Positions 8,648-33,938 are shown, numbered from the stretch's first letter. The stretch is DNA of 64,000 nt from Escherichia coli (GCF_022846255.1 NZ_AP025682.1), one strand, 5' to 3'. The notes: a model not told the origin generated them from the sequence alone. Numbers and translations: made by a program.

Positions 8648-9603
8648 TGAAGCAACTTTGGTTTGCCATGTCATTAGTGACAGGTAGCCTGTTATTCTCT
8701 GCTAACGCCTCGGCCACTCCCGCGTCCGGGGCGTTATTACAGCAGATGAACCTGGCCAGTCAGTCACTGAATTACGAGCTGTCATTCATCAGCATCAATA
8801 AACAGGGTGTTGAGTCTCTGCGTTATCGACATGCACGCCTCGATAACCGTCCTCTTGCACAATTGTTGCAAATGGATGGCCCGCGCCGGGAAGTGGTACA
8901 GCGCGGCAATGAGATCAGCTATTTTGAACCGGGACTTGAACCGTTCACGCTTAATGGCGATTACATTGTTGATTCTCTGCCATCGCTCATCTATACCGAT
9001 TTCAAACGCCTTTCTCCTTACTACGACTTTATCTCCGTCGGGCGCACGCGTATTGCTGATCGTCTTTGCGAAGTTATTCGCGTGGTTGCCCGAGATGGTA
9101 CACGCTACAGCTACATCGTGTGGATGGACACCGAATCGAAATTACCGATGAGGGTTGATCTCCTTGATCGCGATGGTGAAACGCTGGAACAATTTCGCGT
9201 GATTGCTTTTAATGTCAATCAGGATATCAGCAGCAGTATGCAGACGCTGGCGAAGGCAAATTTGCCGCCGTTGCTTTCTGTTCCTGTAGGTGAAAAAGCC
9301 AAATTCAACTGGACTCCAACCTGGTTGCCACAGGGTTTTAGCGAAGTTTCCAGTAGTCGACGTCCGCTACCGACGATGGACAACATGCCTATTGAATCAC
9401 GTCTCTATTCCGACGGATTATTCAGCTTCTCGGTAAACGTTAACCGCGCTACGCCATCGAGCACCGATCAGATGTTGCGCACCGGACGCAGAACCGTCAG
9501 TACAAGCGTACGTGATAACGCCGAAATCACCATTGTCGGTGAACTGCCGCCGCAAACGGCGAAACGCATTGCCGAGAATATTAAGTTCGGGGCAGCGCAA
9601 TGA
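8647..9603 (+). CDS. rseB: sigma-E regulatory protein RseB
   Basis: 318 aa with signal peptide; start overlaps the rseA stop. Confidence 0.95.
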   Translation: MKQLWFAMSLVTGSLLFSANASATPASGALLQQMNLASQSLNYELSFISINKQGVESLRYRHARLDNRPLAQLLQMDGPRREVVQRGNEISYFEPGLEPFTLNGDYIVDSLPSLIYTDFKRLSPYYDFISVGRTRIADRLCEVIRVVARDGTRYSYIVWMDTESKLPMRVDLLDRDGETLEQFRVIAFNVNQDISSSMQTLAKANLPPLLSVPVGEKAKFNWTPTWLPQGFSEVSSSRRPLPTMDNMPIESRLYSDGLFSFSVNVNRATPSSTDQMLRTGRRTVSTSVRDNAEITIVGELPPQTAKRIAENIKFGAAQ

Positions 9604-10079
9604 TCAAAGAGTGGGCTACCGTCGTCTCCTGGGAAAACGGGCAGGCGCTGGTTAGTTGTGATGTTAAAGCCTCATGCAGCAGCTGCGCTTCACGCGCCGG
9701 TTGCGGTAGCCGCGTGTTGAATAAACTTGGCCCGCAAACCACGCATACCATTGTCGTACCCTGTGATGAACAGTTAGTGCCGGGGCAAAAAGTAGAATTA
9801 GGAATCGCCGAAGGCAGCCTGCTTAGCTCCGCATTACTGGTTTATATGTCGCCGTTGGTGGGACTATTCCTCATCGCTTCACTATTTCAGCTACTCTTTG
9901 CTTCAGATATTGCAGCATTATGCGGTGCGATTCTCGGTGGCGTTGGTGGATTCCTGATTGCACGTGGCTGCTCTCGAAAGTTTGCTGCCCGGTCTGAATG
10001 GCAACCGATCATCTTAAGCGTGGCCTTGCCGCCTGGCCTTGTGCGATTTGAAACATCTTCGGAAGACGCGAGCCAGTGA
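9600..10079 (+). CDS. rseC: sigma-E regulatory protein RseC
   Basis: 159 aa with cysteine-rich N-terminus and C-terminal membrane segments; overlaps the rseB stop. Confidence 0.93.
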   Translation: MIKEWATVVSWENGQALVSCDVKASCSSCASRAGCGSRVLNKLGPQTTHTIVVPCDEQLVPGQKVELGIAEGSLLSSALLVYMSPLVGLFLIASLFQLLFASDIAALCGAILGGVGGFLIARGCSRKFAARSEWQPIILSVALPPGLVRFETSSEDASQ

Positions 10080-10276
10080 TTTCACTGGCTTTGTTGCATT
10101 TTGCATAACAAATGCGAGGACGTTTCCAGATACCACAATCCATACGGTATGAACATTTCCTCGCCTCAATGTTGTAGTGTAGAATGCGGCGTTTCTATTA
10201 ATACAGACGTTAAGCTCAGAACAGCGACTTCTAAAAGCCTGGTTAACCGGGCATTAAGGCACAATAATCATACTTT

Positions 10277-12076
<1,800 letters not shown>

Positions 12077-12091
12077 CCCTTAGGAGTTGGC

Positions 12092-13066
12092 ATGGCGAAT
12101 ATGTTTGCCCTGATTCTGGTGATTGCCACACTGGTGACGGGCATTTTATGGTGCGTGGATAAATTCTTTTTCGCACCTAAACGGCGGGAACGTCAGGCAG
12201 CGGCGCAGGCGGCTGCCGGTGACTCACTGGATAAAGCAACACTGAAAAAGGTTGCGCCGAAGCCTGGCTGGCTGGAAACCGGTGCTTCTGTTTTTCCGGT
12301 GCTGGCTATCGTATTGATTGTGCGTTCGTTTATTTATGAACCGTTCCAGATCCCGTCAGGTTCGATGATGCCGACTCTGTTAATCGGTGATTTTATTCTG
12401 GTAGAGAAGTTTGCTTATGGCATTAAAGATCCTATCTACCAGAAAACGCTGATCGAAACCGGTCATCCGAAACGCGGCGATATCGTGGTCTTTAAATATC
12501 CGGAAGATCCAAAGCTTGATTACATCAAGCGCGCGGTGGGTTTACCGGGCGATAAAGTCACTTATGATCCGGTCTCGAAAGAGCTGACGATTCAACCGGG
12601 ATGCAGTTCCGGCCAGGTATGTGAAAACGCGCTGCCGGTCACCTACTCCAACGTGGAACCGAGCGATTTCGTTCAGACCTTCTCACGCCGTAATGGTGGG
12701 GAAGCGACCAGCGGATTCTTTGAAGTGCCGAAAAACGAAACCAAAGAAAATGGAATTCGTCTTTCCGAGCGTAAAGAGACACTGGGTGATGTGACGCATC
12801 GTATTCTGACAGTGCCGATTGCGCAGGACCAGGTGGGGATGTATTACCAGCAGCCAGGGCAACAACTGGCAACCTGGATTGTTCCGCCGGGACAATACTT
12901 CATGATGGGTGACAACCGCGACAACAGCGCGGACAGCCGTTACTGGGGCTTTGTGCCGGAAGCGAATCTGGTCGGTCGGGCAACGGCTATCTGGATGAGC
13001 TTCGATAAGCAAGAAGGCGAATGGCCGACAGGTGTGCGCTTAAGCCGCATTGGCGGCATCCATTAA
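12092..13066 (+). CDS. lepB: signal peptidase I
   Basis: 324 aa; catalytic SGSMMPTL motif. Confidence 0.97.
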   Translation: MANMFALILVIATLVTGILWCVDKFFFAPKRRERQAAAQAAAGDSLDKATLKKVAPKPGWLETGASVFPVLAIVLIVRSFIYEPFQIPSGSMMPTLLIGDFILVEKFAYGIKDPIYQKTLIETGHPKRGDIVVFKYPEDPKLDYIKRAVGLPGDKVTYDPVSKELTIQPGCSSGQVCENALPVTYSNVEPSDFVQTFSRRNGGEATSGFFEVPKNETKENGIRLSERKETLGDVTHRILTVPIAQDQVGMYYQQPGQQLATWIVPPGQYFMMGDNRDNSADSRYWGFVPEANLVGRATAIWMSFDKQEGEWPTGVRLSRIGGIH

Positions 13067-13081
13067 TAGCCCATCTTCGTT

Positions 13082-13110
13082 CACGTTGTCGCCGTTATGG
13101 CGACAACGTG
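13082..13110 (+). terminator. hairpin after lepB (probable terminator)
   Basis: 12-bp perfect stem CACGTTGTCGCC / GGCGACAACGTG with loop GTTAT; the downstream T-run is weak. Confidence 0.45.
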
Positions 13111-13211
13111 AATTATTTATGAGATAAATCTCCCGTGGCTAACGACATCCCCCGTCGTTGTGTATAGAATATTCCCCCGAAGTTTAAGGTTGGCACCTCC
13201 AGGTTGCCACG

Positions 13212-13305
13212 GCACACGAAACAGCGTTGGTCCCCATATACCGGTAAACTGAAACTGCAGCGAAGCAGTTAGCAGAGCCATGTATATCAGGTCTGTTTCG
13301 TGTGC
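13212..13305 (+). promoter_or_regulatory. rnc leader long-range stem (candidate RNase III autoregulatory site)
   Basis: 13-bp inverted repeat GCACACGAAACAG (13212..13224) / CTGTTTCGTGTGC (13293..13305) in the 5' UTR of rnc. Confidence 0.45.
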
Positions 13306-13308
13306 TGA

Positions 13309-14921
<1,613 letters not shown>

Positions 14922-14932
14922 GAGTAACTCCG

Positions 14933-15661
14933 ATGGAAGGCTGGCAGCGCGCATTTGTCCTGCATAGTCGCCCGTGGAGCGAAACCAGCTTGATGCTGGA
15001 CGTCTTCACGGAGGAATCGGGTCGCGTGCGTCTGGTTGCCAAAGGCGCACGCTCTAAACGCTCTACTCTGAAAGGTGCATTACAGCCTTTCACCCCTCTC
15101 TTGCTACGTTTCGGCGGGCGTGGCGAAGTAAAAACGCTGCGCAGTGCTGAAGCCGTCTCGCTGGCGCTGCCATTAAGCGGTATCACGCTTTACAGCGGTC
15201 TGTACATCAACGAACTTCTCTCCCGCGTACTGGAATACGAGACGCGCTTCTCTGAACTCTTTTTCGATTACTTGCACTGCATTCAGTCACTTGCAGGTGC
15301 CACTGGTACGCCAGAACCCGCGCTGCGCCGCTTTGAACTGGCACTGCTCGGGCATCTGGGCTATGGCGTCAATTTTACCCATTGTGCGGGTAGCGGCGAG
15401 CCGGTAGATGACACCATGACGTATCGTTATCGCGAAGAAAAAGGGTTTATCGCAAGCGTCGTTATCGACAATAAAACGTTCACCGGAAGGCAGTTAAAAG
15501 CGTTAAACGCGCGGGAATTTCCTGACGCAGACACACTGCGCGCCGCGAAACGCTTTACCCGCATGGCGCTTAAGCCGTATCTTGGCGGTAAACCATTAAA
15601 GAGCAGGGAACTGTTCCGGCAGTTTATGCCTAAGCGAACGGTGAAAACACATTATGAATGA
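14933..15661 (+). CDS. recO: DNA repair protein RecO
   Basis: 242 aa; conserved operon position. Confidence 0.95.
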
Positions 15662-15672
15662 TGAGGATTGTC

Positions 15673-16404
15673 ATGGCTGAATTACTGTTAGGCGTCAACA
15701 TTGACCATATTGCAACGCTGCGTAACGCACGCGGTACTGCTTACCCGGATCCGGTGCAGGCGGCGTTTATTGCCGAGCAGGCGGGAGCAGACGGCATTAC
15801 CGTGCATTTACGTGAAGATCGCCGCCACATTACCGACCGCGATGTGCGCATCCTGCGTCAGACGCTGGATACCCGCATGAATCTGGAGATGGCGGTGACC
15901 GAAGAGATGCTGGCGATCGCCGTTGAGACGAAGCCACATTTTTGCTGTCTGGTACCGGAAAAGCGTCAGGAAGTAACAACCGAAGGCGGCCTGGACGTCG
16001 CTGGACAGCGTGAAAAAATGCGCGATGCCTGCAAACGTCTGGCGGAGGCCGGGATCCAGGTTTCTCTGTTTATCGACGCCGATGAAGAGCAGATCAAAGC
16101 TGCGGCAGAGGTTGGCGCACCGTTTATCGAGATCCACACAGGTTGCTATGCTGATGCCAAAACTGACGCCGAACAGGCGCAAGAGCTGGCGCGTATCGCC
16201 AAAGCCGCGACCTTTGCCGCCAGTCTCGGTCTGAAAGTTAACGCTGGTCACGGTCTGACCTATCACAACGTGAAAGCCATTGCCGCCATTCCTGAGATGC
16301 ACGAACTGAATATCGGTCATGCCATTATTGGTCGTGCAGTGATGACCGGACTGAAAGATGCGGTGGCAGAAATGAAGCGTCTGATGCTGGAAGTGCGTGG
16401 CTAA
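15673..16404 (+). CDS. pdxJ: pyridoxine 5'-phosphate synthase
   Basis: 243 aa from the internal ATG ([21 protein letters not shown]...). Confidence 0.93.
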
Positions 16405-16784
16405 TGGCAATATTAGGTTTAGGTACGGATATTGTGGAGATCGCTCGCATAGAAGCGGTGATCGCCCGATCCGGTGAACGCCTGGCACGCCGCGTATTAA
16501 GCGATAACGAATGGGCAATCTGGAAAACGCACCACCAGCCGGTGCGTTTTCTGGCGAAGCGTTTTGCTGTGAAAGAAGCGGCGGCAAAAGCGTTTGGCAC
16601 CGGGATCCGCAATGGTCTGGCGTTTAATCAATTTGAAGTATTCAATGATGAGCTCGGCAAACCACGGCTACGGCTATGGGGTGAGGCATTAAAACTGGCG
16701 GAAAAGCTCGGCGTTGTAAATATGCATGTAACGCTGGCAGATGAACGCCACTATGCTTGTGCCACGGTAATTATTGAAAGTTAA
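16404..16784 (+). CDS. acpS: holo-ACP synthase
   Basis: 126 aa ([20 protein letters not shown]...); start overlaps the pdxJ stop. Confidence 0.95.
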
Positions 16785-16805
16785 AAAATACCGTTCTCTT
16801 TATAA

Positions 16806-16890
16806 AGTAAAACCCCCGAACTGGTAAGGAACGGGGGTTTTCAGTTTACAACTTTAATTTTGTGCAGCACACGATTCCAACGGAAATAAT
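16806..16890 (-). ncRNA. ohsC: candidate OhsC-like antisense sRNA; approximate bounds
   Basis: Inferred from the K-12 locus. A minus-strand transcript over 16862..16880 would be complementary (18 of 19) to 17111..17129 in the shoB 5' UTR and could end at the hairpin at 16813..16841. Confidence 0.3.
16813..16841. terminator. rho-independent terminator after acpS, possibly bidirectional
   Basis: Stem CCCCCG / CGGGGG with a 13-nt loop and T4 on the + strand; U-rich on the opposite strand as well. Confidence 0.6.
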
Positions 16891-17748: not shown

Positions 17749-17954
17749 TTACCGTTAAATCATTTTAAAAATCAGTAAGTTGTATCGAGTTTGTATGCTT
17801 TACTGTCATTAACTTACTGTATGTTGATCCAGTGTATTTAACCTTGATAAACTCAGTCCAGTAACACAAAGCCGCAACACATTGCATTTTGTCCCGTAGA
17901 AAAGACTTGTATGTGTGTGCTTGTTTTCTGCGCCTACGCAGATAAGGATTGAGA

Positions 17955-19352
17955 ATGCCGCGCACTGTAACACATAATCCGGATAGCCCCAATAATGACG
18001 ATGTTTTAGCCGCATCTGAAAAATGGGACGCCTGTAAACCCCCCTATACCAGCGCACACATGAAAATCTGTGTTGCTGCCGCCAAAATCATCCTCGCTGC
18101 TTCCGGCGTGGCTCGCCGTTCCAAATACGAAAAAGAGAACTATCTCCGTATCGATTTCAGCAAAGCCGGTAAGGTTACATTTTACGCCGAGTTTCCAAAA
18201 AAGATGGGCCTCAAAGGTAAAAAGCTCGGCGAGTGGCCGGAGCTCGCTATCCAGCTGGCGCGCGAAAAAGCGCTAGGTATGGCTGACGGTGGCCTGCGGG
18301 CAGAGTCCGTACATGCAGCGCTGGAAATGTACCGGGATGACCTCAAAGCCAAAGTCGCCCGGCAGAAGCTGAGCCCGGACAGTTTCACAACCTACGGGGT
18401 GCGTATCGACCGGATTAAAGCAACGTTCGGCGAGCGCGAGGTGTTCAGCGACGTAACATACAATCGGCTGGTGGAAGTGCTGGACGAGTGGATCGCTACT
18501 CGCTCGAACAATAACGCCCTGGAGTTGTTTGCCGAGCTCCGTCGGTTCTGGAAGTTCTGCGCACCTACTCTTTGCAACGGCCGCAATGTTGCCGCCAGTC
18601 TGCCAGATGATTATGTTTCCTCCCGCGTACAGAAACCTACCCCCACACGGCTTTTTACCGATATTGAATCAATCGCCCGACTCTGGCTCAATGTTGCTGC
18701 CTGCACCTCTGTACACCAGAAGAATGCTGTTCGCTTCATGATCATCACTGGTGTTCGTCCGATTAATGTCCATAACCTGCGCTGGGACTACGTTCACGAG
18801 GAGGCTGGTGAAATTGTTTATCCGGAAGGGGTTATCGGCATGCGAGGGGCTATGAAAACACAAAAGGCTTTCCGCCTGCCGATAACCCCTGAGATCCGGC
18901 GGATTATCGACGAGCAGAAAGCCTGGCGTGATTCAGTTCCTGAGTGCAACAGGGATTATGTATTTTTGCAGCCACGTGATCCAATGCAGCCATTTTCAAA
19001 ACGATCACTGGATAAGCTGGTGAAAACATACAGCCCGGACGGGGCTGTAAAAGGAATAAAACATGATGGGACTGTTAAAGGGAAAGACGGTGCATTTAAT
19101 ACGATGTGCCGTAAATTCCTTAAGAGCAATGTTATTGCCTTGATGAAGGAAAGAGGCTATTCCCGCTCAGACCGAAGGGAAATCAGCCTCCTTTGCCTTC
19201 ACCACTCCAGCAAGTCAGATGACCCGATGGCAGAACATTACGACTTTTCTGATGAGATTTTACAGGAAGAGATTGCGTTGAAGCGCGAAGCTTTCGAGGC
19301 TCACGAGCGGAGCATACTTGCGCAGGTGGCATTGCTACGGCGGCGAGGTTAA
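17955..19352 (+). CDS. phage integrase (divergent tyrosine-recombinase-like)
   Basis: 465 aa from the internal ATG with AAGGA Shine-Dalgarno (ORF-track start 17949 is TTG); position beside attL; candidate catalytic R/H/Y residues in the C-terminal half. Confidence 0.65.
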   Translation: MPRTVTHNPDSPNNDDVLAASEKWDACKPPYTSAHMKICVAAAKIILAASGVARRSKYEKENYLRIDFSKAGKVTFYAEFPKKMGLKGKKLGEWPELAIQLAREKALGMADGGLRAESVHAALEMYRDDLKAKVARQKLSPDSFTTYGVRIDRIKATFGEREVFSDVTYNRLVEVLDEWIATRSNNNALELFAELRRFWKFCAPTLCNGRNVAASLPDDYVSSRVQKPTPTRLFTDIESIARLWLNVAACTSVHQKNAVRFMIITGVRPINVHNLRWDYVHEEAGEIVYPEGVIGMRGAMKTQKAFRLPITPEIRRIIDEQKAWRDSVPECNRDYVFLQPRDPMQPFSKRSLDKLVKTYSPDGAVKGIKHDGTVKGKDGAFNTMCRKFLKSNVIALMKERGYSRSDRREISLLCLHHSSKSDDPMAEHYDFSDEILQEEIALKREAFEAHERSILAQVALLRRRG

Positions 19353-21002: not shown

Positions 21003-21920
21003 TTATAATAGTGCTGTTACTATTGCATCTTTAAAAATATTTTCTTCTTCATTTATTAAAGGTGATGACAGATGAATAATTACTTCTTTTCCTGTCAATA
21101 CTATTTGCTCGACTTGAAATCCTGCGTTGTGTAGTCTTTGGCGTAACTTTTCTAGTGCTGATTTTGATATACTAAATCCTTCACTCCTTATAGTATAACT
21201 GGCAACTCCATTTTTAATAATATCTACAGAGTTGTCAATTTCCTGCTGCGAGTAATTTTTCGGTGAGTCGAAAAATCTGGATTTTGTCGTTGCTGTTGCC
21301 CTAAGAGATATCAATAATGATTTGATATCTTTAATCTCAGATGCCAGATACTCAGTTTCTGATACTTCTTTCTGGTCTAGTTGTGCAACTTTGAAAGTGC
21401 CAAAATGTTTGAGGAATGTTGTGTATTCAGGATCAGTTACTGACTTTAAATATGTTTCTTTTATCTTGCTCGCAAGTCTTTCTTTGAATAAATTGATTGA
21501 TTGGTATCTTAAATCCGAAGGGTACTCTAAATGTTCAATTGATGAAATGTCAAAGCTATAAGGAGTGCGCTCGTCCTTAATAATTACGGTCGGTTTGTCA
21601 AATGCGAGACGCATTCCTAATTCAAACATTACATTAGCGTTTCGAGCACTTATATCGCAAACAACTATGGGGTTTTCATAAAGATTTTGAACAATTCGTT
21701 TTTGTATTACTGCAACATCATCATCTGAACTTACCAAATTTGCCTTGAATCCGGCATCATTTGATGCTTCACAAATAATGTCATGAACATTTCTCCAATG
21801 TCCAGTGGGATAACCTTCTATGTCCGCAATTGGCATAATAATGCCGCATATATGAGGTGGCATATTTTTGTTGTCTTTTACATCATCTTGGTTTATTTCT
21901 TTCGTTTGTTGCTTAGCCAT
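21003..21920 (-). CDS. hypothetical cargo protein with N-terminal TIR-like/NDT-like domain
   Basis: 305 aa; motifs ICGIIMPI, PIVVCDIS and RNANVMFELGMRLAFDKPTVII resemble the beta-strand and NV-x-FELG core of the 253-aa protein; AT-rich by eye. Confidence 0.35.
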   Translation of the reverse strand: MAKQQTKEINQDDVKDNKNMPPHICGIIMPIADIEGYPTGHWRNVHDIICEASNDAGFKANLVSSDDDVAVIQKRIVQNLYENPIVVCDISARNANVMFELGMRLAFDKPTVIIKDERTPYSFDISSIEHLEYPSDLRYQSINLFKERLASKIKETYLKSVTDPEYTTFLKHFGTFKVAQLDQKEVSETEYLASEIKDIKSLLISLRATATTKSRFFDSPKNYSQQEIDNSVDIIKNGVASYTIRSEGFSISKSALEKLRQRLHNAGFQVEQIVLTGKEVIIHLSSPLINEEENIFKDAIVTALL

Positions 21921-22649: not shown

Positions 22650-23411
22650 TTACGAGGAAGCGTTAGCTATTTGAGCTTGTGTAAATTCGAAACCAGAATT
22701 TTGTAACCGTTGCACTAGACGAGGAACTGTTTCACGTACATGGTCGTTGAAATTCAGATACAAAATCCCGTTAGCATCAGAAGGCTGTTCTAGGTGCTGT
22801 TTCTGAAGGATTGCTACATTGCTGCGCCCTAAGGACGAAAGAAGCATACCCATCTCGAGTACAACGTTCTGTCTTGCGCGGGGTTGGATTTCTGCTTCAC
22901 CGGCGCGCTTTGAGTATCCCATATCATCAGGTGTCAAAAGAACAATCCCGAAACGGGTAGCAGTTTGTCCTTGCCCAATTTCACGTTCAAGCTCTTCAAT
23001 AATGGTGAGTCCAGTCCCTCCCGTATTCTGCAAAATGAAATGGTCTGGTAATCCAAGTTTATGAAGGATTAGCTCAAGTTGTTCCTTTGCAGTATGGTCA
23101 TGGCCGTGAACAATGAATATCTTTTTGGGAAGCTCAGATGGCTGTTCTACGGCTAGTGGTGTTGCCGTGGGGGGCGTTCCTAAATGGGACATTATTGCAG
23201 TTTCAACATTGGGACGTTCTTGAGGGTTACCTTGAAACTGAATGGTCCGGGTGGTGTAAAGGTTAACAATTACGCCATTCGTTAAACGATAGCAGTCATA
23301 AGTCTCACGCTGTTCGTGGGAAAAATTGGTGAACCCACACTCCCTCAAAAAGTCAGGAAAAGATTCTCTCGGGTATGGATAGGTGATCGGCATTTCAGTT
23401 AGTTCCTGCAT
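22650..23411 (-). CDS. hypothetical cargo protein with C-terminal TIR-like domain
   Basis: 253 aa; KKIFIVHGHDHTAKEQLELILHKLGL and RARQNVVLEMGMLLSSLGRSNVAILQK resemble the COG4271-type TIR-like nucleotide-binding fold (from memory of motifs); unrecognised ~100-aa N-terminal domain. Confidence 0.45.
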   Translation of the reverse strand: MQELTEMPITYPYPRESFPDFLRECGFTNFSHEQRETYDCYRLTNGVIVNLYTTRTIQFQGNPQERPNVETAIMSHLGTPPTATPLAVEQPSELPKKIFIVHGHDHTAKEQLELILHKLGLPDHFILQNTGGTGLTIIEELEREIGQGQTATRFGIVLLTPDDMGYSKRAGEAEIQPRARQNVVLEMGMLLSSLGRSNVAILQKQHLEQPSDANGILYLNFNDHVRETVPRLVQRLQNSGFEFTQAQIANASS

Positions 23412-25580: not shown

Positions 25581-25607
25581 AAAAAGCCGCCAAAATGGCG
25601 GCTTTTT
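25581..25607 (-). terminator. rho-independent terminator directly after the SIR2-like gene
   Basis: GCCGCC / GGCGGC stem with a 5-nt loop, flanked by A5 and T5 (bidirectional shape). Confidence 0.6.
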
Positions 25608-25627
25608 ATAACCGAAGTTAAGAATGC

Positions 25628-27130
25628 TTAATATGATAAATAATCATACAAGCATAAAAGTCGCCTGTATTGGGTATCAATTTTATGCCCTGGTTTTGTT
25701 AAATAATCTCGTAGTTGTTTCAATGAAATAGTATCGTTTAGTACGCAATACATAATCGTGTTAGCAACTTTATACTCTTTCGTTTCTTTTAGTATTTCAT
25801 CAATAGACACAGCCTCACTCTTACATGTTTTAATTCGAGAAAGGTTACCAATGATTTTATCTAGCTGCCGTTTTCTGTATGTCTCGGTATTTTCTAGTTC
25901 AGGGCAGATAGAACTAAAAGCGTATATTGGAAAGTGTTCGCTATTAGCTATGGTTTGCTTATTCAGTAATGCGATAAGCTGAGAGTTTGCTTCGTCAACT
26001 ATTTTAAAATAGTTCTGTATCATTTCAGATTTTGTTTGATAAACATATTGTACGGTTCTTTCTGAACCAACAGCAATGACCATTTCATCATTGCGAAGTT
26101 CATCTAAATTTTCTGTAATTTTAACCTTTATCTCACCACCACTTTTGATGGTACTCCAAACTTTTTGAACCTTTCTTATGTCCATTGCGGATACTGGCAA
26201 AACTAGTCCCGAGATGGCATCATATACAGCTTTGTAATTGTTTGTTTTTATTTTGTTTATTCTTATGATAGACATGCCTTCTATATCTATGTCATGCTCC
26301 GTAATTTCAGTTGACATGCTGTCTTTTTCGTATTCAACCAAAAGAAAATTATCTTTTATCCTTTTTGCAAGTTCGGTATTTAAGTCAACGTATGAGAATA
26401 TGGTTTTTAATAAGTACTTAATGTTTTTATCGCTAATACTATACCCTATAAATATGATAGGGTTGTGTATGAATATTGAGAGTAATTGAGCGCGAATTAA
26501 CTCATATTTATTGTCGAAGTTTGCGTAGTCTTCACCTGTGATAATTATGTTGTTAGGATCACTAACACAGCCATGTATTTTGTAAACTGAACCGTATGGG
26601 TTACTTAAAAGAATGTTATTACCAATCAGTGGGTTAAATTCGAAGATGTTCTCTACGAGTTGGTCGTAGTTTGTTGTAATGATGGAGCCTATGTTTTTTC
26701 TTGTTTTTATTAAGCTGTTTATTTCCTCCATCATTGACTCTTTTATCTTTAGGTCTTTAAGTATTGAAGTTAAATAAATTTTGAATCGACTTAGTTTTTT
26801 TCCTTTTTTCATGTGCTCATAGAAAACATCATTGATGTCTTTGAACTTACCGTTACGATCTTCTGCCAGCTTTTTATTAAAAATATCTTCAAGTTTTGTA
26901 GCTAAGATATCATATCGATAGTCGTCACCTTCTAGGCTTTCAGCTTTCAAATCGTAGTAAAACTCAGCATTACCGGTTAGTTCCATTGCGACACTCAAAA
27001 GAAGACCATCCCAGCTAAATGAGTTTTCTAGATACCGTAGGCTAAATCCTGTTCCAATGAATAGAACAGGGTGGTTTTTATAGTGACTTACAAACTCTTG
27101 GATTTCCATACCGATTCTCAAAGTTGACAC
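25628..27130 (-). CDS. SIR2-like domain protein (SIR2_2 / ThsA-type N-terminus, unknown C-terminal domain)
   Basis: 500 aa; LFIGTGFS, ITTNYDQLVE, KIHGCVSDPNNIIITGEDY and PIIFIGYSISDKN align by eye with the ThsA SIR2 motifs; GTG start with AGAGG Shine-Dalgarno (alternative ATG at 27109); AT-rich. Confidence 0.7.
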   Translation of the reverse strand: MSTLRIGMEIQEFVSHYKNHPVLFIGTGFSLRYLENSFSWDGLLLSVAMELTGNAEFYYDLKAESLEGDDYRYDILATKLEDIFNKKLAEDRNGKFKDINDVFYEHMKKGKKLSRFKIYLTSILKDLKIKESMMEEINSLIKTRKNIGSIITTNYDQLVENIFEFNPLIGNNILLSNPYGSVYKIHGCVSDPNNIIITGEDYANFDNKYELIRAQLLSIFIHNPIIFIGYSISDKNIKYLLKTIFSYVDLNTELAKRIKDNFLLVEYEKDSMSTEITEHDIDIEGMSIIRINKIKTNNYKAVYDAISGLVLPVSAMDIRKVQKVWSTIKSGGEIKVKITENLDELRNDEMVIAVGSERTVQYVYQTKSEMIQNYFKIVDEANSQLIALLNKQTIANSEHFPIYAFSSICPELENTETYRKRQLDKIIGNLSRIKTCKSEAVSIDEILKETKEYKVANTIMYCVLNDTISLKQLRDYLTKPGHKIDTQYRRLLCLYDYLSY

Positions 27131-30158: not shown

Positions 30159-30253
30159 ATCGGGGAGCACGCTGTTGCGAGTGCGCTTTCAGACATAAAA
30201 AAGCCCGTCACTTGAGGCGGGCAAAGACTACACACAGCAATTACATGGATGAT

Positions 30254-30448
30254 TCAGTTGGTATTGTGCGTACGTGGTACCACAAGGTTGAAGCGGACAC
30301 GCCAGTGCGTTGCAATGGTATGCAGGAAAGCACCACATCCAGGGCAGTGCTCATAACATTCGTTGATTTGGTATCGTTTTGGCTTTGGTGTCAGAAGCTG
30401 TGTTTGGCAAGCAGGGCATTCACCTTTGAGCGGTTTATACGTTTTCAC
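30254..30448 (-). CDS. zinc-ribbon protein (hypothetical)
   Basis: 64 aa with CPAC...CPGC; GTG start with GAGGA Shine-Dalgarno. Confidence 0.4.
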   Translation of the reverse strand: MKTYKPLKGECPACQTQLLTPKPKRYQINECYEHCPGCGAFLHTIATHWRVRFNLVVPRTHNTN

Positions 30449-30720
30449 GCCGTTTCCTCATTCAGTTCACTTTGGTGGTTCGGCGGCTTCGACTTGTATC
30501 AGTAGACAGTGCTTCGCCGCACCCCAAAGGGAACTTACTGACCCGTATTGCCGACATCCTGTCCCGCCACGGTCCCGACGCATGGTTTAGAGTCGCGCCG
30601 TTCGACTTGTGGTTTAAATATCTGTGTATAGATATCTTAACTTTACGCGTATAGTTAAGACTTCTAAACTCACAAAGTCAAGTGTTGAGGTTAAGAAAAG
30701 TGAACTTTTTCGGATAGGTA

Positions 30721-30746
30721 AAGAAAAGCCCGCTTAGGAAGCGGGC
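30721..30746 (-). terminator. rho-independent terminator after the repressor gene
   Basis: GCCCGCTT / AAGCGGGC stem with loop AGG, followed on the minus strand by UUUUCUU. Confidence 0.55.
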
Positions 30747-30770
30747 ATGTGGTATAGAGTGAATTTACGC

Positions 30771-31463
30771 TCAGAGCAGAACGGAGTACCAAAATACTTG
30801 GCCTATAATCCTGATTTTATTAGCCTCTTGATTAAAATACTCTTCGTCTGCGTATTCATCCCTATTGAAAGAGCGTATCCGGAGTCCGCTTGGGAGACGG
30901 TACAATAGTTTGACACGAAGTAATCCGTCTTGGTCTATGGCGTACATTTGACCATCTTTTACACCTGTTTTTGATGTATCTATGCCGACGACAGCGCCAT
31001 CCGGTAATACCGGTTCCATGCTGTTGCCGTGGATGCTGACACAAGCCGCACAATTTACGTCAACACCTGCTTTGCGCAACGTTGAACGGGCGAATCTTAA
31101 CTTACATCCCATTCGATCTATATCAACATAAGTACCATTACCGGCAGATAGCTCAATTTCCTGATAGAACGGTATTTCCACTTCATCATCCTCTAATGGC
31201 GTTGATGAGTCCCATACAGAAAACCCTCCCTCAACTTGTGCATTAGAATGTATTTCTTTGGTATCGCTTGTTTTGCCTGAAAGTAGCCACTCTGGAGAAA
31301 CGTTCAATGCTTCGGCCAGATTTATAAGATTTTTCCCGTTAGGTGTGGTGTTTCCGGATTCCCATTGTGAAATCGTGGCTTTAGTTAGACCAATACGTTT
31401 AGCAAGCGCATCCTGCGTTAGGTGGACATTGCGACGAGCCTCGCGAATACGATCATTAATCAT
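30771..31463 (-). CDS. CI-like repressor (HTH plus S24 LexA-like peptidase)
   Basis: 230 aa; N-terminal helix-turn-helix (LTQDALAKRIGLTKATISQWESG) and C-terminal S24 fold; divergent from a cro-like gene. Confidence 0.85.
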   Translation of the reverse strand: MINDRIREARRNVHLTQDALAKRIGLTKATISQWESGNTTPNGKNLINLAEALNVSPEWLLSGKTSDTKEIHSNAQVEGGFSVWDSSTPLEDDEVEIPFYQEIELSAGNGTYVDIDRMGCKLRFARSTLRKAGVDVNCAACVSIHGNSMEPVLPDGAVVGIDTSKTGVKDGQMYAIDQDGLLRVKLLYRLPSGLRIRSFNRDEYADEEYFNQEANKIRIIGQVFWYSVLL

Positions 31464-31471
31464 GGTTTTAC

Positions 31472-31553
31472 CCTCATATAGTTTAGTTAGCTTAACTTAA
31501 TCAGGGTATCGCTTTCTTGACTTGTTGGTTTAGTTTTCTTAACCTCATATAAC
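31472..31553. promoter_or_regulatory. immunity-region operator/promoter segment
   Basis: Repeated CCTCATATA, GTTTAGTT and CTTAAC motifs in two mirrored arrays; candidate rightward promoter TTGGTT (31525..31530), 17 bp, TATAAC (31548..31553). Confidence 0.4.
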
Positions 31554-31576
31554 CATATATTTCCTGGGTAACGGTT

Positions 31577-31762
31577 ATGAAAAAAGCAGAAGCAATTGAG
31601 CTTGCAGGAAGTAAAGCGAAACTAGCGAGACTATTGAAGGTTTCCAAAGGAGCCGTATCTCAATGGGGGGAGGAAATCCCAGAGTTAAGAGCTCTTCAAC
31701 TTGAAAAGATTTTGGAGCAAAAAAATGTAGTCAAACAAAAAGGCTTAACCCATGTCCGATAG
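31577..31762 (+). CDS. Cro-like helix-turn-helix regulator
   Basis: 61 aa; LAGSKAKLARLLKVSKGAVSQW helix-turn-helix. Confidence 0.65.
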   Translation: MKKAEAIELAGSKAKLARLLKVSKGAVSQWGEEIPELRALQLEKILEQKNVVKQKGLTHVR

Positions 31763-33938
31763 CAAACCATGGGGAGCTACGCCTGATGAGTGGTTTCATT
31801 TTGACCTGGTATTGGGGAGAACTGATCATCTTCTGCCAGTTGTATGTAACCCCGGTGCGACCATATCCCCTGATAGTAAACTGAAAGCGTTGGGTAAGAC
31901 GCCGAGTCGCTATAACCGGGACCGCCAGGTCACCGGTATTGCTCAATGGACCGGGCATGTTGTTACTGAGCATGATTTTGCCCGCTGGTCGAATGAACCG
32001 GATTATGGCATCTGCGTGCGTACAGGCCATGGCTGGCTGGCGCTGGACTGTGATAGCGAAGATGAAGACATTCAGGCAGATATTCGTAAAACGCTTGTGC
32101 AACTTCTGGGTGAGTTGCCGCCGCGACGCTGGCGAGCAAACAGTAATAAGTGTCTGTATCTGCTGGCCGTTGATGGTGATTTCCGTAAGCGTATCCATCG
32201 CCTGGCGGGGGATATGGGCATTATCGAGTTGCTGGCGAACGGGCAGCAGTTCGTTGCCTGCGGTACGCACAGCAGCGGCGCGCGTATTGAATGGGACGGC
32301 GGTTTGCCGGATGAACCTCCGGCTATTACTGGTGAGCAGCTTGAAACGCTGTGGCAGCGCCTGGCTGAACAACTCCCTGTGTCGGTAACCACCGAAGCGG
32401 GCAACACGAAGATGCGCGACCGATCAGCATTCACGCCCGGCGCGACGGATGATACAGCTGAATATCTTGATGCCAATGGCTGGACGCTGCTGGATGGCGC
32501 AAATGGTGAACGATATATCCGCTGTCCGTTTGAAGACGGCCACAGTAGCGGGGGCGATCCAACAAGCACAGTTTATTTTCCTGCGGGAACCGCGGGCTTT
32601 GAGCAGGGGCATTTTAAATGCCTGCATGCCAGTTGTGCGCATCGTGATGACGGAGATTTCCTTAATGCCATCGGGATCCGCAACGACGATTTCGAAGATC
32701 TGACCAGCACCGAAGTGGCGGAACCTTTACCGCTGCCTGCTTTCGAGCGTGATAAATGGGGGCGTATCGAGGCAACCATCAGCAACGCAGCAAAAGCAGT
32801 AGTACGCCCTGATTTTGTGGACATCGATATTCGCTTTGACCAGTTCCGCGACGAAATCATGTTTGCCCCTGCAGGATCCGGACAATGGCGGGCATTCACC
32901 GATGCGGATTATGCGCGCCTGCGCATCACGATGGAAAAGCGGGGATTTAAACCTGTTGGTCGTGAACTTATTCGCGATGTGGTGTTACTTGCAGCCGATG
33001 AACAACCATTCGATTCAGCGATCACCTGGCTGAACGGACTGGAGTGGGATGGCGTGCCGCGCATCGAATGTTTCTACCATACGCACTTCGGTACAGCCGA
33101 CACGCCTTATACCCGTGCGGTGTCTATGTACATGTGGACCGCGTTGGCGGGGCGAGTACTGGAGCCAGGCATCAAAGCGGATATGGTGCCGATCCTCGTT
33201 GGTCCGCAGGGCTGCGGTAAGTCTTCCGGAGTAGAGGCACTGAGCCCTGATCCTGCGTTTTTTACTGAAATCTCTTTTGCCGAAAAAGACGATGATCTCG
33301 CTCGAAAAATGCGTGGTCGGCTGGTGGCAGAGATTGGTGAACTGCGCGGACTTAATACCAAAGAGCTGGAGTCAATCAAAGCGTTTGTGACGCGTACTCA
33401 CGAAAACTGGATCCCGAAATACCGGGAGTTCGCCACCCAGTTTCCTCGTCGCCTGGTGTTCGTTGGTACCACCAATGAGGACGAATTCCTTGCGGACAAG
33501 ACTGGTAACCGTCGCTGGCTCCCCGTGGAAGTGTCGAAAGTCGACGTGAAAGCGATAAAAAGAGATCTCCTTTTACTTTGGGCTGAGGCTCGTGAGGTGT
33601 TTCAGCGTCTGGGGGGTATCCAGTTCCGTGAGGCTGAACAACTGGCAGCGAGTGTCCATGAACAGTACACCATCAAGGATGCTTGGCTTGAAACGGTAGA
33701 GAAATGGCTCGACACGCCAGACCTGATGACTAATGAACTTCCGCGAAATTGCGAATTTTTACGCGCAAGTGATGTTTTGCGTGATGCGATTGGGCTAAAT
33801 CCTGACCGCATCGGAAAACGCGAAGAAATGCGAATTAGTAATGTTTTGCAAAATTGCGGGTATAAGCGTGCCCAAAGGCGAATTGGGGGGAAAAAATGCA
33901 AGGTTTGGGAACCGCTGGAACCACGCGGAACCACCTAA
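31752..33938 (+). CDS. primase / replicative NTPase (bifunctional primase-polymerase N-terminus, P4/VirE-type C-terminus)
   Basis: 728 aa; Walker A GPQGCGKSSG in the C-terminal half. Confidence 0.75.
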   Translation: MSDSKPWGATPDEWFHFDLVLGRTDHLLPVVCNPGATISPDSKLKALGKTPSRYNRDRQVTGIAQWTGHVVTEHDFARWSNEPDYGICVRTGHGWLALDCDSEDEDIQADIRKTLVQLLGELPPRRWRANSNKCLYLLAVDGDFRKRIHRLAGDMGIIELLANGQQFVACGTHSSGARIEWDGGLPDEPPAITGEQLETLWQRLAEQLPVSVTTEAGNTKMRDRSAFTPGATDDTAEYLDANGWTLLDGANGERYIRCPFEDGHSSGGDPTSTVYFPAGTAGFEQGHFKCLHASCAHRDDGDFLNAIGIRNDDFEDLTSTEVAEPLPLPAFERDKWGRIEATISNAAKAVVRPDFVDIDIRFDQFRDEIMFAPAGSGQWRAFTDADYARLRITMEKRGFKPVGRELIRDVVLLAADEQPFDSAITWLNGLEWDGVPRIECFYHTHFGTADTPYTRAVSMYMWTALAGRVLEPGIKADMVPILVGPQGCGKSSGVEALSPDPAFFTEISFAEKDDDLARKMRGRLVAEIGELRGLNTKELESIKAFVTRTHENWIPKYREFATQFPRRLVFVGTTNEDEFLADKTGNRRWLPVEVSKVDVKAIKRDLLLLWAEAREVFQRLGGIQFREAEQLAASVHEQYTIKDAWLETVEKWLDTPDLMTNELPRNCEFLRASDVLRDAIGLNPDRIGKREEMRISNVLQNCGYKRAQRRIGGKKCKVWEPLEPRGTT

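Follow-up and report, generated by a model that had tools for sequence, protein, structure and literature searches.

The window analysed here is a stretch of 64,000 nucleotides of Escherichia coli DNA (GCF_022846255.1, NZ_AP025682.1), and all positions are counted from its first letter. Two divergently oriented genes, one for a CI-like repressor and one for a small cro-like protein, are separated by a spacer of 113 bp (31464-31576). The repressor combines an N-terminal helix-turn-helix (HTH) domain with a C-terminal LexA/S24 self-cleavage domain, and the GNSM and RVKL motifs as well as an Ala-Gly are present in its translation. A VapE-type primase gene lies 3' of cro and directly overlaps its end (31752 versus 31762). 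A divergent pair of an HTH and S24 repressor and a small Cro is the arrangement by which a lambdoid immunity region is recognized, and it is found here. The preliminary description, which had placed the operator region in the spacer between these two genes, is in agreement with their domain content (HTH_3 and Peptidase_S24 on one side, P22_Cro on the other). Between 31577 and 33938, a cII/c1-like establishment gene is absent after cro, and the VapE primase is found there instead. As cro is not followed by such a gene, neither the lambda nor the P22 model makes the route to lysogeny in this phage group obvious.

On the other side of the repressor gene, an intrinsic terminator is followed by a group of sites around a candidate leftward promoter (PL). 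A Zn-ribbon-like ORF is the first gene downstream of this predicted promoter, after a leader of ~200 nt. Rfam and tRNA scans gave no match in the immunity region. Conservation was judged from 26 IMG/VR loci that encode relatives of the repressor, and the spacer alignment comprises 15 sequences. The features are collected in Table 1.

Table 1. Features of the immunity region, ordered by position in the window (OR and OL, right and left operator; PR and PL, rightward and leftward promoter).
Feature	Position	Strand	Sequence or elements	Evidence
Exchangeable immunity cassette	30251..31737 (L029 3252-5313)		Zn-ribbon ORF, PL/OL, terminator, cI, OR, cro	
Zn-ribbon-like ORF	30254-30448	-	64 aa	Weak Pfam matches zf-IS66 (below gathering cut-off) and Zn_ribbon_TFIIB
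OL downstream site	30626..30641	+	GTATAGATATCTTAAC	Perfect GTWWAG-N4-CTWWAC; same place in most relatives
Candidate PL	30652..30681	-	-35 TTGACT 30681..30676, 18-bp spacer, -10 TAACTA 30657..30652	
OL core site	30654..30669	-	GTTTAGAAGTCTTAAC	Perfect match; half-sites invariant in 13 relatives
OL upstream site	30690..30705	-	GTTCACTTTTCTTAAC	2 mismatches; GTTAAGA and 3 more columns invariant in relatives
Intrinsic terminator after cI	30720..30746	-	GCCCGCTTCCTAAGCGGGC then TTTTCTTT	Stem conserved in relatives
CI-like repressor gene	30771..31463	-	230 aa	Pfam HTH_3 2.4e-18, Peptidase_S24 2.8e-17
cI Shine-Dalgarno	31471..31475	-	GAGGG	Direct reading; C31472 invariant, C31473 at least 90% in relatives
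9-mer, copy 1	31472..31480	+	CCTCATATA	cI Shine-Dalgarno and variable spacer; 1/9 columns invariant, one more at least 90%
OR site A (OR3 position)	31481..31496 (18-mer 31480-31497)	+	GTTTAGTTAGCTTAAC	15/16 columns invariant, 15 relatives
OR site B (OR2 position, candidate weak)	31506..31521	+	GTATCGCTTTCTTGAC	2 mismatches to GTWWAG-N4-CTWWAC
Candidate PR	31517..31545	+	-35 TTGACT 31517-22, 17-bp spacer, -10 TAACCT 31540-45	
OR site C (OR1 position)	31528..31543 (18-mer 31527-31544)	+	GTTTAGTTTTCTTAAC	14/16 columns invariant, other 2 at least 90%
9-mer, copy 2	31543..31551	+	CCTCATATA	Last base of site C, -10 end and variable cro leader; 2/9 columns invariant, one more at least 90%
cro-like gene	31577..31762	+	61 aa	Pfam P22_Cro 59.7 bits (cut-off 30.2), 2.3e-16

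Three short words each occur twice in the spacer, as had been pointed out before and as both direct reading and a repeat search confirm: the 9-mer CCTCATATA, GTTTAGTT (31481-31488 and 31528-31535) and CTTAAC (31491-31496 and 31538-31543). Their order, described earlier as mirrored, is not. The first copy reads CCTCATATA followed by GTTTAGTT-AG-CTTAAC, and the second reads GTTTAGTT-TT-CTTAAC followed by (C)CTCATATA. The segment GTTTAGTTnnCTTAAC is a direct repeat, with 14 of its 16 positions identical and 47 bp from start to start, and only the 9-mer switches side. Between the two copies, the 13-mer TTAMCCTCATATA is identical at 12 of 13 positions. The 16-bp unit GTTTAG-N4-CTTAAC is itself a near-palindrome (GTTTAG versus GTTAAG, the reverse complement of CTTAAC). 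Instead of two mirrored arrays, the candidate operators are thus direct repeats of one site of 16-18 bp with an internal dyad symmetry.

The chance level of these repeats was determined with 2000 dinucleotide-preserving shuffles of the 113-bp spacer. A pair of 16-mers identical at 14 or more of 16 positions appeared in seven of the 2000, and an exact repeat of at least nine bases in 88, which places the 16-mer repeat beyond chance by itself and makes the 9-mer only marginal. Over the entire 64-kb window, the 16-mer pattern has six matches with up to two mismatches, against 0.41 expected, five of them flanking cI. Perfect matches to the degenerate form GTWWAG-N4-CTWWAC number four (0.04 expected), all within 920 bp flanking cI, a count that was reached by none of 100 shuffles. 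At two mismatches, this degenerate form is at noise level, with 24 matches in the window versus 17 expected, and the case for the weaker sites (31506-21 and 30690-705) is therefore drawn solely from their position and conservation. The 9-mer CCTCATATA has three exact matches in the window (0.24 expected), the third at the unrelated position 21849, and is absent from the OL cluster.

Two perfect matches and one with two mismatches are found in OR, in a P22-like spacing, and the same numbers are found in OL. In OR, 17 bp separate site A from the cI ATG and 5 bp separate it from the cI Shine-Dalgarno sequence. Site C fills the spacer of PR, and the TAAC of the -10 hexamer is provided by its right half. 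The overlap with a rightward promoter that had been proposed from the first reading is thus found for one operator, site C, which is located inside TTGACT-17-TAACCT. The -35 hexamer of PR is invariant in six of six columns and the -10 in five of six (TAACAT in L026), with a constant spacing in the relatives. A consensus promoter scan of 31300-31800 and 30400-30900 at a threshold of 9/12 gave no promoter. PR was missed because its score of 8/12 is below this threshold, its -10 being weak. The proposed promoters are based on conservation and not on the scan. The 47 bp between A and C correspond to ~4.5 helical turns and place the two sites on opposite faces of the DNA, so that direct pairwise cooperativity between them is not favoured.

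The middle site, B, is weaker in sequence. Its right end overlaps the PR -35. G1, T2, G6 and the right half are invariant in the relatives, and the inner bases vary in distant ones (TATC, TAAT, TTAT). This conservation is partly explained by the overlap of the right half with the invariant -35 hexamer. In L020, a separate middle site with a perfect GTTAAG half is present 25 bp from the first site and clear of the -35. The balance tips slightly towards site B being a weak operator, probably dependent on cooperativity.

The three words had been taken as operator half-sites. For GTTTAG and CTTAAC, this assignment very probably stands. It does not for CCTCATATA, which is not conserved and is not an operator element. 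Its CATATA part has no invariant column out of six in either copy among the 15 aligned relatives. The conserved C's of copy 1 are accounted for by the cI Shine-Dalgarno sequence, and the conserved CCT of copy 2 by the end of site C and of the -10 hexamer. By this pattern of conservation, the 9-mer repeat is a lineage-specific coincidence superimposed on two constrained elements.

Some other elements of the spacer were considered and set aside. Hand placement of the cI maintenance promoter (PRM) on the minus strand gave no location. Two candidate hexamers, TACCCT (31508..31503, minus strand, with a poor -35 TAAACC at 18 bp) and TAAACT (minus strand, inside site A), are not kept in all relatives. 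Positions 31469-31508 form an imperfect palindrome of 40 bp centred on site A, in which 14 of 18 arm positions are complementary and the outer arms TACCCT/AGGGTA are perfect. It was rejected as an extended operator, as the left spacing differs by 1 nt among relatives and the left arm coincides with the cI Shine-Dalgarno sequence. The reading frame of a small upstream ORF (ATGAGGGTAAAACCATGA) is not kept in relatives.

The operator set is not confined to the spacer between cI and cro, as the preliminary description had it; a cluster past the end of cI had been missed, along with the probable weak middle site. In this OL cluster, the same motif recurs around the leftward early promoter at three sites, which are conserved in relatives. 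The core site falls within the PL spacer, shares bases with the -10 and, in all relatives but L020, is found ~100-110 bp beyond the cI stop. The upstream site is found 8 bp upstream of the PL -35 and 36 bp from the core site, and the downstream site just downstream of the predicted PL start point. GTCAAG, the reverse complement of CTTGAC that forms the PL -35, is invariant in the OL alignment. The corresponding PL elements read TTGACA-17-TAACTT in L023 and TTGACA-17-TAATAT in L026, which speaks for TTGACT-18-TAACTA as the PL elements of the window.

The half-site consensus is GTTAAG, in a 6-4-6 layout. Across the sites of the window, the outer 6+6 positions are conserved and the A/T-rich centre varies (TTAG, TTTT, ACTT, ATAT, AAAA). 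The four central bases are highly conserved within each orthologous site, and their variability appears only between different sites. In five of the six sites, one half is a perfect GTTAAG (CTTAAC as written) and the other is imperfect (GTTTAG, GTATAG or GTTCAC), and the halves of the weak site B are GTCAAG and GTATCG. None of the six has the fully symmetric form GTTAAG-N4-CTTAAC, an asymmetry that is conserved across the relatives. At both PR and PL, it is the perfect half that supplies the TAAC of the -10.

A few near-matches elsewhere were not retained as operators. Two sequences with one mismatch each, at 25617-25632 and 25736-25751, occur 120 bp from each other at the 3' end of a SIR2-like gene rich in A+T, by a hairpin terminator at 25581-25607, and probably reflect a composition effect. 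The near-match at 31684-99, inside cro, is probably accounted for by the coding of the conserved PELRALQLE.

Sites A and C are kept over a wide range of repressor divergence. In relatives with 52-100% CI identity, site A begins at -33/-34 (or -35) from the cI start and site C at -80/-81 (or -82), with the 47-bp spacing between them retained. The exception is L020 (CI 60%), where the two sites are found at -17 and -75, and where OL-type sites lie ~1 kb beyond the cI stop. In other relatives, the motif is found past the cI stop at ~70 bp (some loci), 105 bp and 133 bp. The flanking spacers and the cro leader vary while A and C stay near-invariant. Every locus with the motif encodes the recognition helix TKATISQWE unchanged; in L024, L025 and L029 the helix is a different one, and the motif is absent. 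Of 5,426 complete E. coli genomes, 17 contain the immunity region, with ~99% identity. A blastn search of 50,697 phage records with this region gave nothing beyond a match of 61 nt where cro and the primase gene join, and the top-ranking phage CI by tblastn is 49% identical.

The deposited phage closest to the surrounding genome is Escherichia phage vB_EcoM-606R2 (ON470579). Its early-left genes are 98.8% identical up to 30250, and homology comes back at 31738, in the last codons of cro, and extends into the primase gene. The segment in between is swapped, and it holds every copy of the motif along with cI and cro. The organisation of vB_EcoM-606R2 is the same (OL, repressor, OR, cro), but its repressor and Cro are unrelated and GTTTAG-N4-CTTAAC is absent. 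It has a repeat of its own instead, TTATGCG(T/G)TATCG, which occupies the OR position as well as the OL position. This phage is consequently predicted to be heteroimmune to the one described here, and the loss of the motif together with the cassette is the behaviour expected of operators in an exchangeable immunity cassette.

Among known systems, the closest resemblance is to phage P22, whose OR and OL sequences were read from Salmonella phage 25 (Lederbergvirus P22). The N-terminal domain of the c2 repressor is the best PDB match (1ADR/2R1J and 3JXB; E 5.2e-14 for 1ADR), with ~44% identity over 68 amino acids (residues 2-69), and the cro-like protein, which falls in the Pfam family P22_Cro, shares 37% identity with the Cro of P22 type. 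In the P22 repressor site, which spans 18 bp, the protein contacts positions 2-7 and 12-17 but not 8-11 (PMC4267663). As a pattern, this 18-bp 6-4-6 layout is matched by the sites of the window, which also share the TTAAG core. Counted from the repressor start, the P22-type OR sites begin at 4, 29 and 52 (25/23 spacing), and A, B and C begin at 20, 45 and 67 (25/22). P22 OR3 (AGTTAAGTCATCTTAAAT) abuts the c2 ATG, just as AGTTTAGACATCTTAACT abuts the repressor ATG in L020. At the P22 PL, the core operator is placed between the -35 and -10, and a half-site gives the -10 TAAATT, a design that is repeated here at PL (TAACTA) and at PR (TAACCT). The second OL site is located upstream of the core site in both, at 34 bp in P22 (OL1 to OL2) and at 36 bp here.

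The differences from P22 concern specificity as well as layout. The half-site is (A/T)TTAAG/CTAAAG in P22 and GTT(A/T)AG here, and the recognition helix reads SNVAISQWE in P22 and TKATISQWE here. The operator triplet is 16 bp further from the repressor ATG, which leaves room for a Shine-Dalgarno sequence. As PR is also displaced by ~15 bp rightward relative to the triplet, the site at the OR1 position fills its spacer and -10, and the start point is left uncovered. The middle OR site is degenerate here, and the third OL site is downstream of PL, whereas it is upstream in P22. Finally, the VapE primase follows cro, with no c1/cII-like gene. From these half-sites and helices, the immunity specificity should differ from that of P22, and the phage would be heteroimmune to it.

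The likeness to lambda is one of organisation: a divergent repressor (HTH and S24-type) and cro, operators on both sides of cI over PR and PL, and an exchangeable cassette. Lambda CI was not among the PDB matches of the repressor at E ≤ 0.001. In lambda, the operators are 17 bp long and unrelated in sequence, the cI transcript made from PRM is leaderless, and Cro is of another fold family. Among solved homologues of the N-terminal domain, the 434 repressor ranks second (1PER/2OR1, E 2.5e-7). It binds a dyad site, a 14-bp operator of the form ACAA-N6-TTGT, in which the non-contacted A/T-rich centre tunes affinity.

Most probably, then, the 113-bp spacer is the OR of a P22-type c2/cro immunity cassette, and GTTTAG-N4-CTTAAC is the operator of its repressor and Cro. 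A dimer of the CI-like repressor would recognise the pseudo-palindrome of 16-18 bp by its HTH domain, with TKATISQWE as recognition helix, and the small Cro-like protein would compete for the same sites. Repressor bound to site C (and B) would block PR and keep cro and the VapE primase operon silent; located in the PR spacer and over the -10, it would exclude RNA polymerase. Site A adjoins the cI ribosome-binding site, and Cro, or CI in excess, bound there would lower the transcription of cI. On the left, occupation of the three OL sites would block PL and silence the early-left operon (recombination and replication). RecA-stimulated self-cleavage of the S24 domain would lead to induction of the prophage, and the whole would act as a bistable switch of the P22/lambda type. 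Binding as such, the preference among sites and the order of their occupation, cooperativity and the position of PRM are inferred here from sequence, as is a possible long-range interaction between the OL and OR clusters, which are ~870 bp apart.

Other readings of the spacer were weighed against this one. The proposal that CCTCATATA, GTTTAGTT and CTTAAC are three kinds of half-site in two mirrored arrays draws on the presence of every word in two copies, on the 13-mer with its single difference and on the scarcity of exact 9-mer repeats among the shuffles. It is highly improbable, as the word order is a cyclic permutation and not a mirror, and as the 9-mer is missing from OL and varies in its CATATA part where the operators are kept. 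That the repeats are due to chance, or are a functionless neutral remnant of a local duplication, might be argued from the A+T-rich region and the shortness of the words. This is practically refuted by conservation, the sites being invariant across CI proteins down to 52% identity, and the shuffles (7/2000 for the 16-mer pair, 0/100 with four perfect matches) also speak against it. It is very unlikely, too, that the motif is bound by another factor, either Cro alone or, as iterons of a replication origin, a factor acting for the VapE primase-helicase. The primase gene is directly downstream, which would fit iterons, but dyad sites over the -35 and -10 hexamers of both divergent early promoters form an operator pattern, and they travel with the cI-cro cassette, while the primase gene is retained by the heteroimmune sibling. 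The Cro helix (SKGAVSQW) is related to that of the repressor and equally conserved in all loci that bear the motif, so that the sequence by itself cannot separate CI from Cro. Against Cro as the sole ligand, both proteins use the same sites in P22, the homologous system.

The number of operators in OR is less settled. It is possible, if somewhat doubtful, that only A and C are operators and that the block 31503-31522 (AGGGTATCG..CTTGAC) combines the PR -35 with the leftward -10-like hexamer TACCCT of cI. The similarity of site B to the motif is indeed at noise level, and its right half is the invariant -35. In the closer relatives, TACCCT, TACTCT and TACATT keep the form TAnnnT, and a start ~7 nt past this hexamer would centre site C near -40, a position from which lambda-type repressors activate. 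However, TAnnnT is lost in the distant L019 and L026 (TACAGC, AACATC), in which the operator-like GTWWnG is kept. The 25/22 spacing also matches the three-site geometry of P22, and the perfect GTTAAG half of the L020 middle site, clear of the -35, argues in the same direction. A further step would be a switch wired unlike those of P22 and lambda, as a reduced-site variant of the classic three-site switch. The conserved asymmetry of the halves, the use of the perfect half as the TAAC of the -10, the shift of ~15 bp and the location of site C near -40 of a putative cI promoter suggest that one site could both repress PR and activate cI; autoregulation would then be provided by a degenerate middle site and a site 47 bp away on the opposite face. 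Such a wiring is unlikely. The three-site OR of P22 type, with a weak site B, is retained as the preferred reading.

The prophage that carries this immunity region has an integrase gene at 17949-19352, starting at 17949. The host flank (9564-16881) has Rfam matches to AsrC (the antisense RNA of rseC), rncO and ohsC. The tRNA scan gave no tRNA gene in the window, so integration was not into a tRNA within it. The SIR2-like protein (25628-27130, minus strand) is 500 aa long, is encoded by an A+T-rich gene, matches Pfam SIR2_2 (1.7e-22) and PADLOC PDC-S25 (4e-158), and is ThsA-like. A TIR-domain protein of 253 aa (22650-23411, minus strand) matches CAP12/Pycsar TIR (2.9e-31) and PADLOC PDC-S35 (1e-108), and an ORF of 305 aa (21003-21920, minus strand) has a weak match to a TIR effector. 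The SIR2 and TIR genes of the early-left operon are candidate anti-phage defence genes. A near-identical prophage in E. coli STEFF_1 has, by annotation, no SIR2 or TIR gene at these places.

A literature search with the four operator 16-mers found no paper in the library that was searched, and the specific assignment therefore appears to be unpublished. The immunity system itself appears to be of the ordinary P22/lambdoid type with a new sequence specificity, which is unsurprising, and the understanding of such switches is unchanged by this result. What the analysis provides is an operator sequence and a promoter map for an immunity group that is present in the 17 E. coli genomes mentioned above (of 5,426 complete ones) and in a dozen or more diverged prophages of enterobacteria. 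These prophages belong to the APSE/YeP4-like group of mosaic phages, and the one studied here carries SIR2 and TIR candidate defence genes. The repressor/operator pair would be orthogonal to those of P22, 434 and lambda, and could serve as a genetic part. For the prophages of this group, the map predicts which would be homoimmune and which heteroimmune.
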